Assembly: GCA_012719595.1 (NCBI GenBank)
Contig: JAAYAB010000212.1
Span: forward strand, 14,677 to 78,676
Source: Bacillota bacterium
GTDB lineage: Bacteria > Bacillota > DTU014
Direction of reading: 5' to 3'
Length of the DNA stretch: 64,000 nt
In this document: piece after piece, positions 1 to 52,401 of the stretch
Layout of the letters: each line of letters begins with the position of its first letter
Position numbering within the stretch: the first letter of the stretch is position 1
Notes under the pieces: model-generated
Told to the model about the DNA's origin: nothing
Database searches by the model: none
Seen by the model: the letters and a program-made list of their open reading frames with translations, nothing else
Program-made: the position numbers and the translations under genes

Positions 1-780
1 GCACCCGCTCATCGTACACATCGTGTAGACATGACCTACCATGAAGTTGACAACAGCGTCAAAATCGCGGATCGAAACCCTGCCGACATCTCTGCCGACC
101 CATTCGTCAAAGAGCTCGCAGAGGAATCCACCCCATTCCTCCCCTGTTATGCTGTACGGCAAGAGATTGCCCGACTCGTCGAATTCGACGCACGGGATGT
201 ACTGATGGTACAGAATGCCCATGTCGCACAGGTAGTTGTACACTTCCCTTGCTCTGTGGACATTTGCCGAGCTCACCAGCACGAGTGCGTTGAACTCGAC
301 CTTGTTTCGTGTGAGACACTCGATGCCCTCCAGCACCCTTGCGTGCGACCCGGTTCCGTCAGCCCTCTGCCGAAACCGGTCATGGATGTCAGAGGGACCA
401 TCGATACTCACGCCAACGAGGAACTTGTACTTGGAGAGCAAAGCGGCAAACTCGTCATCGACCAGCGTCGCATTGGTCTGAAGCCCGTTCGACACGACTG
501 AACCTCTTGGGCAGTACCGTTCCTCAAGCTCCACGACCTTTCGAAAGAAATCCACGCCCATGAGTGTGGGTTCACCGCCCTGCCATCCAATGGCGTAGCA
601 GCCCTGTCCCGTCGACATGAAGGAGGATATCATCCGTTCGAGGACATCGACGGGCATACGGTGCGTTTTTGAGTCAGGGTAAAGCGTCGACTTCTCGAGG
701 TAGAAGCAGTACTGGCATCTCAGGTTGCAGTCGGCAGAGGCCGGTTTGACGAGCAGAGAAAACGGCTTGGATGCACTCAT
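1..780 (-). CDS. Radical SAM / SPASM-domain maturase, anaerobic sulfatase-maturating enzyme (anSME) family; partial, C-terminus runs off the window start
   Basis: Not in the ORF track (no stop in window). Manual minus-strand translation from ATG at 778-780 gives MSASKPFSLLVKPASADCNLRCQYCFY...WQGGEPTL...LQTNATLVDD...KFLVGVSIDGP...KVEFNALVLV...RVSIRDFD, aligning motif-for-motif with Clostridium anSME (CxxxCxxC cluster plus SPASM region YNYLCDMGI...C). Confidence 0.85.
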   Translation of the reverse strand, partial: MSASKPFSLLVKPASADCNLRCQYCFYLEKSTLYPDSKTHRMPVDVLERMISSFMSTGQGCYAIGWQGGEPTLMGVDFFRKVVELEERYCPRGSVVSNGLQTNATLVDDEFAALLSKYKFLVGVSIDGPSDIHDRFRQRADGTGSHARVLEGIECLTRNKVEFNALVLVSSANVHRAREVYNYLCDMGILYHQYIPCVEFDESGNLLPYSITGEEWGGFLCELFDEWVGRDVGRVSIRDFDAVVNFMVGHVYTMCTMSGC

Positions 781-2418
781 CGAATTACCTCGCAGGATCT
801 GTAGGTACACTATCACTTCGACGCCGTCTGCCGGTTAGCCTCTCTGATCCAGATTTTGAGACGGCTGTCCGCTCAGCTGCTGACAGACCCCGTCGAATCT
901 GCGCCCACGCTGCCCGAATGCCTTCGGTCACCAGACGCCTCTGCTCGTCAGTAAGCTCGTCCAGCAGCATTGGACCCGACGTCAGGCCCACTGTAATGCG
1001 CATTTCACTCACCCCTACACGTCTATGAACCTGGGCAAACCAATAGACTGACACCGGAGGAAATAGGTTGACAGGGGGCTTCGCGGTTGGGTCAGCCACG
1101 ACTTGTAGCCCTGTATGCACGGGTCTCAACAGACGAACAGGCCAGAGAGGGCCAGTCGCTTGCGACGCAGATCTCGAGACTGTCGCACTACGCGTCATCG
1201 CGCGGATATGACAACGTACGAGTGTTCGTGGACGATGGATACTCAGCCAAGAACATGAACAGGCCTGCGCTGAGCGAACTGCTGTCTCTCGTCAGGGAGG
1301 GCCGAGTCGAAGCAGTATGCACTATGGCTATAGACAGGCTGTCACGCAATCTCCTTGACATGCTGAAGTTCATTGAACTGTGTGAGCAGCACAACACGTC
1401 TTTCATATGCACGGCGTTGAACTTCGACACGTCGTCGCCGATCGGCCGCATGACTCTTCAGATGCTGGCCGCCTTTGCGGAGTTCGAACGATCGATGATA
1501 GCCTCGCGAGTCAAATCGAACATGCACGAGATCGTGAGACAGAAGCGCAGGTTTCTGTCCAGTCCGCCGTTCGGCTATGAACTCGGCAGCGACGGAACGC
1601 TCAGGATAGTGGAGCCGGAGGCTCACTGGGTCAGAGCCGCGGCAGACCTGTACCTGGGCGGCCGGGGATACAGAGAGATCGCTCGGTGGCTGAACGAGTG
1701 TGGAGCGCCTCCAACACGAAGGGGCAACCCGTGGTCACCCTCATCTGTCAAGGCGATGCTTGCAAACAGAACATACACGGGAACCGTGGTCTGGGGAAGG
1801 CGCTGCACGGATTCCAAAGGCAGAGTCGCATGGAAAGCCGAAGACGAATGGACTGTCGCACACGACGCGCACGCGCCCATAATCGACCATGAGAAATGGA
1901 ATGCAATCGTTGAGAGAATGCAGGCGAGGCGCAACAGGGGCGGCATTCACCGGTCCCGCTCGAGGCTCGCCGGGCTGGTGCAGTGCGGGCACTGCGGGTC
2001 CAAAATGGTCTCGCGAATCTACGGCAACCGCGGGCCTAACAGAGGCCGGCGGATATATGTCTGCTCAGGGTATCAAAAGAAGGGAACATGCCGCTTCAAC
2101 TACATCTTCGCCGACATCCTGGAGGCTGAAGTGCTGAAGTGTCTGTCGGCCGCCAGCCCGGACCTGCCCGGCCCCAATCCGCCGGGACGCGGCGCTCACT
2201 GTGAGGCCGCGCCGCAAGTTGGCAAGAGAGCGGGAAATGCCACACAACGCCGAGACTCGAGTTCTCCCGTGCCCGGGTTCCTCTCCTGGCTGTGGAACGA
2301 AGCGGATATCAAGACGCTGCATCGATTCCTGGAGCTGGTCCTGGAATGCTGTGTGGTAACAGATCGACAGCTGGAAGAAGTGAGGATCTCGTCCCGGCTC
2401 ATATCACCGAAACGCAAT
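1..2418. mobile_element. Right-hand end of an intervening (skin-like) element inserted into a spoVK-like gene; carries a serine recombinase and radical-SAM cargo; left boundary lies outside the window
   Basis: Recombinase gene abuts the break in the spoVK-like reading frame at ~2418. Cargo genes are unrelated to the flanking core synteny (hfq-miaA-mutL...). The host gene is broken inside its Walker A codons. Confidence 0.6.
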
Positions 2419-2433
2419 CAGGATTGCCTCTAA
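1087..2433 (+). CDS. Large serine recombinase (resolvase/invertase N-terminal catalytic domain + recombinase domain + zinc ribbon), SpoIVCA/phage-integrase type
   Basis: VALYARVSTDEQ catalytic-Ser motif at N-terminus; CGHCGSKM...YVCSGY zinc-ribbon in the C-terminal half. TTG start at 1087 preceded by AGGGGG RBS 8 nt upstream; in-frame TGA at 1069-1071 rules out a longer N-terminus. Confidence 0.85.
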   Translation: MGQPRLVALYARVSTDEQAREGQSLATQISRLSHYASSRGYDNVRVFVDDGYSAKNMNRPALSELLSLVREGRVEAVCTMAIDRLSRNLLDMLKFIELCEQHNTSFICTALNFDTSSPIGRMTLQMLAAFAEFERSMIASRVKSNMHEIVRQKRRFLSSPPFGYELGSDGTLRIVEPEAHWVRAAADLYLGGRGYREIARWLNECGAPPTRRGNPWSPSSVKAMLANRTYTGTVVWGRRCTDSKGRVAWKAEDEWTVAHDAHAPIIDHEKWNAIVERMQARRNRGGIHRSRSRLAGLVQCGHCGSKMVSRIYGNRGPNRGRRIYVCSGYQKKGTCRFNYIFADILEAEVLKCLSAASPDLPGPNPPGRGAHCEAAPQVGKRAGNATQRRDSSSPVPGFLSWLWNEADIKTLHRFLELVLECCVVTDRQLEEVRISSRLISPKRNQDCL

Positions 2434-2758
2434 AGACCATATGGAGCACCTGCGGCTCAGACAGCAGCTGGGCCTCTCTGCGCAATCGCTGCACCTCGAC
2501 AAAGGCATAGATCTCCTGGACCGTTTTCTTGACCTTGTTCAGCCCAACGAGTTCATCGAGTTCGTCCATCACCCGTCTGATTCTCTGATTCCTGTGCTCT
2601 TCATCCATAGCCAGCTTCAGCGCAGGAGCACTGCTCGTCCGCATGAACTCGACGACCTGCGCAGGGGACACTGTTCCCGTCTCAAGGAAGCGAAAGACAT
2701 CATCTCTGCTGTCTGTCAAGACCATCGACATGCCGTCACGACACCCCCAATGCAGCAT
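2399..2758 (-). CDS. spoVK: 5' segment (N-terminal ~113 aa) of a SpoVK/CbxX-family AAA+ ATPase gene, split at the Walker A motif by the inserted element
   Basis: ...DELDELVGLNKVKKTVQEIYAFVEVQRLRREAQLLSEPQVLHMVFRGNP matches SpoVK (..LIGL..VK..V.E....V.....R...GL.....LHMIFKGNPGTGKTT) up to the G of the P-loop, then terminates. Located immediately downstream of hfq. None of the other two minus frames downstream encodes the missing GTGKT. Confidence 0.7.
   Translation of the reverse strand: MLHWGCRDGMSMVLTDSRDDVFRFLETGTVSPAQVVEFMRTSSAPALKLAMDEEHRNQRIRRVMDELDELVGLNKVKKTVQEIYAFVEVQRLRREAQLLSEPQVLHMVFRGNPDCVSVI
2410..2426. other. Element/host junction (putative attR-type crossover region) inside the recombinase 3' end and the Walker A codons of the host AAA+ gene
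   Basis: Minus-strand host frame reads ...LHMVFRGNP then DCVSVI-stop instead of the GTGKTT expected for this family. Identity to the expected codons is lost after the first nucleotide of the Gly codon (~2418). The last ~5 codons of the recombinase are encoded by host-side DNA. Confidence 0.5.
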
Positions 2759-2820
2759 CGGTGCATTTTATGCTCGAACCGCAGGCGGTGTGACAATGGC
2801 ACGGTTCTGTGGAAGACACA

Positions 2821-26817: not shown

Positions 26818-26967
26818 CAGCAGGCTTAACCTCCTACATCGGCAGACAGGTGCTGCGGCAATGCCGGCCTGACCTATCTGAGTGTGCCGTAAAGAGGTGC
26901 ATGAGTGCGCTGGGTGGCAGCACCCTGAGTAAACATTGTGACATAAGGTCCAGTAGGTTTTCCCCAC

Positions 26968-27648
26968 TCGGAATCCGTCGTCGCCGAACGGACGGTTTCC
27001 CTTCCTCCGGGCGTCCTGCCGTCGCCAGACAGGAAACTGGATCGCCTGTGAGTCACACTCTAATCCTCAGGATGCCCCGCTCCGCAGACAGTCTAGGAGT
27101 TTTCCTCATCGACCTCTTCCGGTCCCTAGCCTCTTTTGCAGCCGCCACTTCACCCGGCAATAGGCTTGGGTCCCTGGCCGGGGATCCAAACTTGAACCCG
27201 GGTTCCCGCAGAGGCCGCTCAAGGCAGGCTACACTACACCCAGCCCAGTTAGTTGCCCTCTCAGGCCGGACCGGAATGCAGGTTCTACCCCAAGCCGTGG
27301 ATCGCCCGTGCGTGCGATTCTTCATCGGACGCCGCGTTCACCACGAGGTTGGGTCTCCGCGGAAGCAGGGTCAACGCCCGCATGCCGTTGCGGATCGCCC
27401 CACTTCCTTAACCCCCAGCACCAACCCCCGACTGGGCGTCGAGAGCCAGCACCAGGGACTTCATCGTTGTGCCCGTGGCGGATTTTTAGCCCCGCCTTCA
27501 GGACCGGAGTGGCCGACTAGAATACTGCGCCACCCGAGCATAACGCAATGTTATTATAACACAGGCTAAGACTGCCATCAAGGAGAGGACCGGCGCTCCA
27601 CGCAGCGCAGAGGCGCCAAGGCGCTGCTAGTAGATGGTTAGCGAGAGC
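26968..27648. other. 680-bp ORF-free, GC-rich, highly self-complementary intergenic region of unknown function (candidate structured RNA / long leader of the downstream DUF21 gene on the minus strand)
   Basis: No credible ORF on either strand. Contains the perfect palindrome GAACCCGGGTTC (≈27190..27215), several stable hairpins, and an AT-rich island (GCAATGTTATTATAACAC, ≈27545-27565). Could not be matched with confidence to tRNA, tmRNA, RNase P, SRP, M-box or cobalamin elements by eye. Confidence 0.3.
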
Positions 27649-52224: not shown

Positions 52225-52370
52225 TCCGTACCTTCGGGGCAGGGTGAGACGCAAGTCAATTCCCGACCGGCGGTGATGGCTTCTAGCCTCAGTCCGCGAG
52301 TCCAGATCAGTCTGGATTGACCTGGTGAGATTCCAGGACCGACGGTACAGTCCGGATGGGAGAAGGAGTC
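52225..52370 (+). promoter_or_regulatory. FMN riboswitch (RFN element)
   Basis: CCTTCGGGGCAGGGTGAGAC...ATTCCCGACCGGCGGTGATGG...GACCGACGGTACAGTCCGGATGGGAGAAGGA matches the RFN consensus cUUCGGGGCAGGGUGAAAUUCCCGACCGGCGGUAGUAAAGC...GACAGUGAAAGUCUGGAUGGGAGAAGGA; lies upstream of a RibU-type transporter. Confidence 0.85.
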
Positions 52371-52401
52371 TTGGTACATTGCAGTACCGTGCTGATGCAA
52401 T

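Follow-up and report, generated by a model that had tools for sequence, protein, structure and literature searches.

The first 2,431 nucleotides of the window, the 64,000-nucleotide stretch of Bacillota DNA analysed here (contig JAAYAB010000212.1), are most of a three-gene, non-phage intervening element that lies inside the Walker A codons of spoVK. The element encodes a large serine recombinase and, divergent from it, a 72-amino-acid (aa) orphan open reading frame (ORF) and a 419-aa maturase of the anaerobic sulfatase-maturating enzyme (anSME) type. In our judgement this is probably a long-resident, skin-like spoVK element, presumably excised in the mother cell, that carries a conventional anSME as a fixed passenger. 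Its anatomy and boundaries, the in-frame reconstitution of spoVK, the empty sites of relatives, the family membership of its proteins by hidden Markov model (HMM) and motif, and the selection acting on it are supported directly.

Boundaries, junctions and inheritance of the element

The left end of the element was located on ten contigs (L001-L010), fetched via the recombinase protein and 99.9% identical to the window over 12 kb; window position 1 is position 8915 of L005. Read in the direction of spoVK, these contigs carry hfq, the spoVK 5′ half, the recombinase gene on the opposite strand, the maturase gene, a 195-aa fragment with AAA and AAA_lid_6 matches, and a small GTPase-like gene. Further along come a Met_gamma_lyase-family gene, AdoMet decarboxylase and, farther still, spoIVA and HU. 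The synteny miaA-hfq-spoVK-(GTPase)-ynbB-like lyase presumably matches that of the spoVK region in B. subtilis. The far end of the element lies 7 nt past the maturase stop codon (L005 8435-8437), ~490 bp left of the window, and is followed by the spoVK 3′ half; the 7-nt distance from the maturase stop to this half is seen in ten independent contigs of the same strain as well as in five other lineages. Measured from core to core, the element has a length of 2,918 bp, of which ~2,430 bp (1..2431, the right-hand 83%) are in the window. An earlier note on this stretch had placed most of the element, including any substrate gene for the maturase, to the left of the window, which these boundaries contradict. 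The features in question are the following.

1..780, minus strand: 5′ part (codons 1-260 of 419) of the anSME-family radical SAM/SPASM/SEC-C gene, assigned by HMM from the fragment and from the full-length protein P0001
785..1003, minus strand: conserved 72-aa orphan ORF, found in six element lineages and in P0269, its stop 4 nt before the maturase ATG
1009..1015, minus strand: ribosome-binding site GGGGTGA of the small ORF, read from the sequence and kept in the alignment
1019..1050, minus strand: bipartite inverted repeat CAGTCTAT-N15-CATAGACGT, columns invariant in six lineages, 15-nt spacer variable
1087..2433, plus strand: large serine recombinase (Pfam Resolvase, Recombinase and Zn_ribbon_recom)
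2419..2431, minus strand (that of spoVK): core AGAGGCAATCCTG of the attachment site attL, from junction comparison, with the putative crossover dinucleotide AA at 2424-2425
2420..2731, minus strand: spoVK 5′ half (codons 1-104, ending ...HMVFRGNP), broken within Walker A; TIGR02881 positions 2-52
2765..2800, minus strand: motif upstream of spoVK, GTGCCATTGTCACAC-N14/15-GCATAnnATGCA (GTCACAC-N14/15-GCATAnnAT), kept in element-bearing and empty-site lineages
-499..-487, outside the window (L005 8415..8427): core AGAGGTAATCCTG of attR, 7 nt after the maturase stop

Five further lineages have an element of this architecture, which makes six in total (A-F); the elements measure 2,829-3,053 bp, and the junction is at one and the same codon throughout. 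The element has no protease, transporter or convincing precursor peptide, and neither the element nor ~10 kb of flank contains a phage gene, a sulfatase or a module for a ribosomally synthesized and post-translationally modified peptide (RiPP). The sulfatase or RiPP-type module that the earlier note had suggested as further cargo is not supported. Only the recombinase matches a PHROG of integration type; the structural, lysis, replication and regulatory genes that would mark a prophage remnant are missing from the element. The GC content of the element and its GC content at third codon positions (GC3) are like those of the host.

The ORF at 2399..2758 (minus strand) aligns with the SpoVK model over its first 52 positions, the match stopping just before Walker A; the 5′ half of the gene ends in ...GTCTTTAGAGGCAATCCTG and then diverges. 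Joining the halves at the core yields a 318-aa SpoVK that reads ...QVLHMVFRGNP|GTGKTTVARILG..., with a perfect P-loop and an intact GNPGTGKT. In all six lineages the joined gene reads FRGNP|GTGKTT, in frame and at the same codon. The reconstituted protein reaches 396.6 bits on TIGR02881 and naturally intact orthologues 401-407 bits, so that all of them, reconstituted or intact, stay slightly short of the curated 422.95-bit cutoff. Strong purifying selection acts on both halves, with ratios of nonsynonymous to synonymous divergence (dN/dS) of 0.00-0.08 at a synonymous divergence (dS) of 0.37-0.96. Thus, the split gene is still needed. The two pieces are implausible as separate functional polypeptides, since the P-loop itself is interrupted and the 5′ fragment continues into a short run of junk codons.

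The motif upstream of spoVK overlaps the sole promoter-like match of a promoter scan. It resembles a promoter of the mother-cell type and probably drives spoVK during sporulation. The B. subtilis gene has σE- and σK-dependent promoters that are active in the mother cell (PMC517825).

Empty sites are provided by three relatives, L022 (GCA_036678725.1), L023 and L024. They have the same synteny and an uninterrupted spoVK, and their locus lacks both recombinase and maturase; their SpoVK shares 71-72% identity with the reconstituted protein. The genes left of the element (Met_gamma_lyase, AdoMet_dc, spoIVA and HU) are host genes kept in these relatives. The loci that the earlier note had named as a test of its cargo proposal, those of relatives with an intact spoVK and no recombinase, thus lack the maturase as well, a result that supports the maturase as cargo of the element. 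Left of the window, a 206-aa ORF (L005 7160..7780, minus strand) overlaps the spoVK stop codon; it has a faint MMR_HSR1 match and no NCBIfam match, occurs in lineages A-C, and is absent from lineages D-F and from the empty-site relatives.

The recombinase matches phrog_95 (integrase) at 1.2e-109 and its nucleophile motif YARVSTDEQ is invariant. The best NCBIfam matches, XisF and CcrB, are partial and both under cutoff (XisF 190.9 bits vs a cutoff of 375). Both att arms are coding. On one side, the last recombinase codons (...QDCL*) overlap the att core and the TAA stop is supplied by host spoVK DNA (window 2419..2433); on the other, the arm consists of the last maturase codons (...CHGAYN*), and in lineage E the maturase ORF extends to the TAA of the core. 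In the predicted circle, the recombinase ORF would read on antisense to the maturase 3′ end and gain 31 aa in lineages A-C and 4-5 aa in lineages D-F. The cores read AGAGG[C/G]AATCCT at the spoVK 5′ side and AGAGGTAATCCT at the maturase side, having GGnAATCCT in common. Throughout the six lineages, attL has a host-type base (C or G) 5′ of AA and attR a T; the empty sites of L022 and L023 read GGGAATCCT and GGCAATCCC. The predicted attB junction is ...TTTAGAGGCAATCCT|GGAACAGGCAAAAC... and the predicted attP junction ...AATAGAGGTAATCCT|GATTGCGTTTCGG.... In the reconstructed attP, imperfectly inverted arms flank AGGTAATCCT, as in lineage D with CACTGAACCACACAG and the reverse complement CACCGAAACGCAAAG, so that crossover likely occurs at the central AA.

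Outside the clade, the closest relative of the recombinase is 51% identical over its full length and is encoded on a phage-like contig (L120 3995..5458; IMG/VR UViG_3300033145_002115), where it adjoins an ImmA-like metalloprotease (phrog_87) and has no association with spoVK or a radical SAM gene. A scan of genome contigs with the recombinase returned only relatives of 30-44% identity (Bacillus, Paenibacillus and others), none of them beside spoVK, the maturase or the small ORF. A metagenome scan with the recombinase alignment gave generic patterns with a best match of 53% identity and no association with spoVK or maturase. The ancestor of the recombinase was probably a phage integrase.

By analogy with skin, SPbeta, skinCd and gin (PMC4191935, PMC5025042, PMC5595907), the recombinase would join the two GGnAATCCT cores in the mother cell during sporulation, with the 72-aa protein as its candidate directionality factor. 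Excision would release a circle and restore the spoVK frame (...HMVFRGNP|GTGKTT...), and the forespore would retain the integrated copy. The maturase would be the only gene of the element with no part in recombination, except that its last codons would form an arm of attP. Purifying selection on both spoVK halves, taken with the analogy, argues for such excision in the mother cell.

The maturases of the five further lineages are 86, 83, 76, 74 and 69% identical to that of the window (BLASTP over the 260-aa fragment). Pairwise dS values are 0.71-0.91 for the recombinase, 0.77-0.94 for the maturase and 0.55-0.94 for flanking host genes; the recombinase has a dN/dS of 0.10-0.12 and the maturase one of 0.10-0.17, next to 0.13-0.15 for the host gene mutL. 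The element-borne maturases are monophyletic (100 of 100 neighbour-joining bootstraps) and nest among chromosomal homologues, and their internal topology agrees with the recombinase and host-gene trees. Equal dS, purifying selection, monophyly and host-like GC content together indicate a single capture of the maturase, which has since been inherited vertically in functional form.

The maturase and the small ORF

The minus-strand frame that starts at 780 with MSASKPFSLLVKPASADCNLRCQYCFY is open over 260 codons (1..780) and contains WQGGEPTLMG in translation. Its ATG occupies 778-780 and is preceded, 8 nt upstream, by the ribosome-binding site GAGGT. As the earlier note had stated, the gene is missing from the ORF list because the frame exits the left window edge with no stop inside; the remaining 480 bp lie left of position 1 (L005 8435..8914). 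Pfam detects Radical_SAM in the 260-aa fragment, and the top NCBIfam model is TIGR03942 (anaerobic sulfatase maturase; positions 2-251 of 363, E 9.5e-85), the score of 284.8 bits reflecting truncation of the protein by the window edge. The full-length protein P0001 (419 aa) scores 394.8 bits over positions 2-360 of 363 and passes the equivalog cutoff of 349.45 bits. The HMM assignment thus agrees with the anSME-type radical SAM/SPASM gene read from the window in the earlier note. Of the motifs named there, the cluster motif and GGEPTL are indeed present, and the SPASM cysteines were overstated: the window contains only the first two auxiliary-cluster cysteines (CTMSGC, ~1-18), and the rest of the SPASM domain was read from the L001-L010 contigs and from P0001, which carries Pfam SPASM PF13186.

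Among solved structures the best relative of P0001 is anSMEcpe (4K36, E 1.8e-69). The alignment shows the radical SAM CxxxCxxC, all auxiliary-cluster cysteines and the Cys276-Asp277 pair (anSMEcpe numbering), with matched motifs CNLRCQYC, C..SGCC, YPCDFF (the Cys-Asp pair), EDCGRCPYLRFCSGDC and WLCSGW. With anSMEcpe (PDB 4K36-4K39), AtsB and TIGR03942 the maturase therefore shares CxxxCxxC, GGEPTL, a SPASM domain with all eight auxiliary-cluster cysteines, and the active-site Cys-Asp pair. In contrast to anSMEcpe, it has an additional C-terminal extension of ~55 residues that ends in a SecA-type SEC-C zinc motif, residues 398-417 matching the C-terminal zinc-binding peptide of SecA. Most homologues closest to it have this tail as well. 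No relevant paper emerged from a literature search on anSME and SEC-C. Homologues of 60-67% identity annotated as anaerobic sulfatase maturases come from Lentisphaerae, Planctomycetota, Verrucomicrobiota, Armatimonadota and Caldicoprobacter, the first three being sulfatase-rich phyla. All RiPP-maturase models score far under their cutoffs on P0001 (bits/cutoff: DynA 196.7/450, DarW 168.9/650, DarE 133.5/650, GrrM 126.3/310 and PapB 120.7/340).

By sequence criteria, the maturase is a conventional-looking member of the anSME family. Its activity and substrate we infer from this membership: most likely, it generates formylglycine by oxidation of Cys or Ser in sulfatases whose genes lie elsewhere in the genome. 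It is unlike known anSMEs in that it has no sulfatase nearby and is housed in a site-specific recombination element. A contig of 2,851 bp with a 70%-identical maturase (P0008) was considered as an assembled excised circle and rejected; it is a chromosomal fragment with DUF951 upstream and no recombinase.

The small ORF was not called by gene finders in the lineage of the window and was called in two other lineages. Its N-terminal ~35 aa are conserved (MR[IV]TV..GP..L..L..E.R.L..G) and its C-terminal part is variable and basic; dN/dS is 0.30-0.48. Only three relatives, members of the same family, came out of an exhaustive phmmer search covering 1.84 billion representatives, and a word-index protein search gave no match. 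In the AlphaFold2 (AF2) model, the protein forms a beta-hairpin followed by a long helix, with a predicted local distance difference test score (pLDDT) of 84-95 over residues 1-40. A ribbon-helix-helix fold, suggested by the N-terminal MRITV strand, was dropped in view of this hairpin with its single long helix and of a Foldseek search against PDB that returned nothing at E < 1. The small ORF is a candidate for a directionality factor or a regulator. On position and size, by analogy with known systems, we tentatively favour a recombination directionality factor, an assignment that may well hold and could equally have to be revised.

The earlier note had assigned both promoters to a divergent region of 306 bp (781..1086). 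The distance to the recombinase is correct; most of the gap is coding, as the small ORF takes up 219 bp and leaves 83 bp (1004..1086) between the divergent starts. These 83 bp contain the only strongly conserved non-coding block of the element, the inverted repeat, located 15 nt upstream of the ATG of the small ORF. Its role may be that of a promoter for an operon of small ORF and maturase, of an operator, or of both. The repeat gave no match to a σ70 promoter. It may resemble a σE-type promoter (kmATAtt-14-CATACAhT). The inverted ATAGAC half-sites were also considered as SpoIIID boxes and dropped, as they agree with WWRRAC but depart from the consensus in its ACAR portion (C. difficile KRTAACARK).

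Alternative readings

Several observations weigh against a long-resident, excisable element with a fixed anSME passenger. In the spoIVA, Met_gamma_lyase, mutL and spoVK trees, the empty-site relative L022 is sister to the element-bearing lineage F (L019), and L023 is next; the host-gene trees took in L005, L011, L013, L016-L019, L022 and L023. Thus, element and maturase can be lost or moved, which weakens the case that the maturase is indispensable. The simplest reading of this patchy distribution is loss through precise germ-line excision, which would be costless to spoVK; with dS saturated at that depth, transfer of the element among relatives may also have played a part. Among assembled contigs no excision product was seen, neither an intact spoVK of the same strain (best intact match 72% identical) nor a circle junction. 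In strain L014 (JGI 3300049640, lineage B), codon 71 of the spoVK 5′ half (L014 5220..5432) is changed from GAG to the nonsense codon TAG. The half is intact in the otherwise near-identical L013, and L014 could be a non-sporulating variant or the product of an assembly or sequencing error. A sulfatase substrate would carry C/S-x-P/A-x-R; a regular-expression search found no sulfatase signature in the 64-kb window or at 15 loci, and there was none in the ~10 kb flanks of the six lineages, the rest of the genome being outside the search. Likewise, none of the four closest chromosomal maturase homologues inspected (65-70% identity, varied contexts) has a sulfatase, a recombinase or spoVK beside it. 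The SEC-C-tailed maturase subfamily is not known to have a characterised member. Finally, Pfam, PHROGs and a PDB profile search gave nothing above noise for the small ORF, and neither these nor Foldseek and phmmer revealed homology to known directionality factors.

That no sulfatase was found nearby would also suit a role in sporulation. The small ORF and the maturase might form an operon expressed in the mother cell, via CAGTCTAT-N15-CATAGACGT and/or by read-through from spoVK, and the enzyme might act on a mother-cell or spore protein and not on a vegetative sulfatase. In each of the six lineages both genes run in the direction of spoVK, and only weak terminator candidates, within the recombinase gene, lie between the spoVK 5′ half and the operon. 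The proximity of the invariant motif to the small-ORF ATG is in line with this idea, as are its spacing and CATA box, presumably like those of the σE consensus; in skinCd, the directionality-factor gene CD1234 has a σE promoter with a 14-nt leader. However, the motif fits ~11 of 15 consensus positions and a perfect inverted repeat is equally suited to an operator. Moreover, the 60-67% identity of the maturase to enzymes of non-sporulating phyla argues for a generic function, and empty-site sister lineages apparently sporulate without the maturase. We consider an operon of this kind unlikely, if still deserving of attention. Less likely again is its most elaborate form, a domesticated developmental cassette that would unite a mother-cell promoter motif, the 72-aa protein as directionality factor and an anSME-type SEC-C enzyme modifying a mother-cell or spore-envelope protein by formylglycine-type chemistry.

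The position of a small ORF directly upstream of a SPASM enzyme on the same strand, with apparent translational coupling in some lineages, is the classic layout of a RiPP cassette, in which the 72-aa ORF would be the precursor peptide and the radical SAM/SPASM enzyme its maturase, one form that the RiPP-type module of the earlier note could take. A conserved N-terminal and a variable C-terminal part would fit a precursor, and the cyclophane-forming maturases DynA and DarE are the next-best HMM matches of the enzyme. Nevertheless, the maturase passes the anSME equivalog cutoff and stays far under every RiPP-maturase cutoff, and AF2 gives a folded hairpin and helix for the conserved part of the small ORF. 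Its C-terminal part has no conserved Cys, aromatic residue or C/S-x-P/A-x-R motif (there is no Cys at all in lineage A), the element lacks a protease and an exporter, and the closest chromosomal maturase homologues have no adjacent small ORF. A precursor role is unlikely because the variable region offers no conserved modifiable residue and the enzyme is not classed with RiPP maturases; the cassette as a whole we regard as quite improbable.

A dead insertion, with spoVK as a pseudogene, no developmental excision and the maturase as a decaying passenger, would account for the missing excision product and for the nonsense codon of L014. It is hardly compatible with dN/dS values of 0.00-0.08 in both spoVK halves at dS up to 0.96, with a junction in frame at the same codon in six lineages, and with dN/dS of ~0.1-0.17 and intact catalytic motifs in recombinase and maturase, and we regard it as very improbable. 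A large prophage-like element extending left of the window, with a sulfatase or RiPP module and the maturase at its edge, was reasonable beforehand, as most described elements are tens of kb long (PMC5595907, PMC4191935), found no support once the contigs were extended, and is refuted by the spoVK 3′ half and the conserved host genes that follow the maturase, leaving it a negligible probability.

Elsewhere in the window, a full-length ornate large extremophilic (OLE) RNA is located at 26898..27549 on the minus strand (455 bits, model positions 1-616 of 616), which fits an anaerobic Bacillota host, and a flavin mononucleotide (FMN) riboswitch aptamer at 52226..52371 on the plus strand (101 bits).

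Relation to known elements and implications

Intervening elements of sporulation genes are usually described as decaying prophages in which no gene is conserved except that of the recombinase and, in some cases, that of a directionality factor. Sporulation intervening elements with serine recombinases are already known, and so is spoVK as an integration target of Bacillus phages. The spoVK element has much in common with skin-type elements (skinBs with SpoIVCA in sigK; skinCd with CD1231 and CD1234; SPbeta with SprA/SprB in spsM; vfbin; vrin; gin with GirC/GirX in gerE), namely a recombinase at the edge, a split mother-cell gene, short common junction cores that restore the frame, empty sites in relatives and a small orphan ORF next to the recombinase. 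Skin elements are 2.6-48 kb long with 2-67 encoded proteins, the minimal ones having 2.6 kb and 2 proteins (bioRxiv 10.1101/2022.02.25.481979), and their directionality factors are small orphan proteins of 72 aa (CD1234; PMC5025042) or 42 aa (GirX; PMC5595907).

In contrast to these, the element described here, from an uncultured Bacillota clade of ~59% GC, targets spoVK within its Walker A codons, and its excision is a prediction. It has three genes only, and its single cargo is a conserved metabolic or maturation enzyme whose 3′ end forms an att arm. Furthermore, the synonymous divergence of the element equals that of the host in comparisons spanning at least three deep lineages. A literature search retrieved no paper on a minimal non-phage spoVK element or on an intervening element with a radical SAM maturase.

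The SPbeta-like phage vB_BsuS-Goe14 integrates in B. subtilis spoVK and has its attP in the 3′ end of the integrase gene (bioRxiv 10.1101/2021.11.22.469490). Host gene and type of integrase are the same as here, and the attP in the 3′ coding end likewise makes the C-terminus of the enzyme differ between integrated and circular forms, the latter being 4-31 aa longer in the predicted circle of the spoVK element. Goe14 differs in being an active phage of ~130 kb with an AAG core at a lysine codon and an integrase truncated by 131 aa, whereas the element has no phage genes. The low identity of the recombinase to any phage integrase in the INPHARED collection (at most 30-32%) indicates that spoVK was targeted independently of Goe14-type phages, or so it appears from the sequences compared. 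The cyanobacterial heterocyst fdxN element (XisF) is excised developmentally from a gene needed only in a terminally differentiated cell, as is presumed for the spoVK element. It differs in phylum, developmental programme and element content, and the recombinase described here scores well under the XisF cutoff.

With the spoVK element, spoVK of an uncultured Bacillota clade would be added to the developmentally split genes. For annotation this means that spoVK fragments, which would otherwise pass as pseudogenes or as fragments of an 'AAA ATPase', can be recognized as halves of one gene. The maturase has the appearance of an ordinary anSME, and no sulfatase or RiPP module is hidden on the element. 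If the enzyme and its small companion were nevertheless part of a domesticated developmental cassette, radical SAM protein modification would be tied to the sporulation programme. Although cut down to 2.9 kb, the element has kept one unrelated enzyme gene while diverging alongside its hosts over a long period. With its three genes, its pair of 12-bp cores and a single invariant, putatively regulatory motif, it is a compact system for studying the control of such elements and the retention of their cargo.

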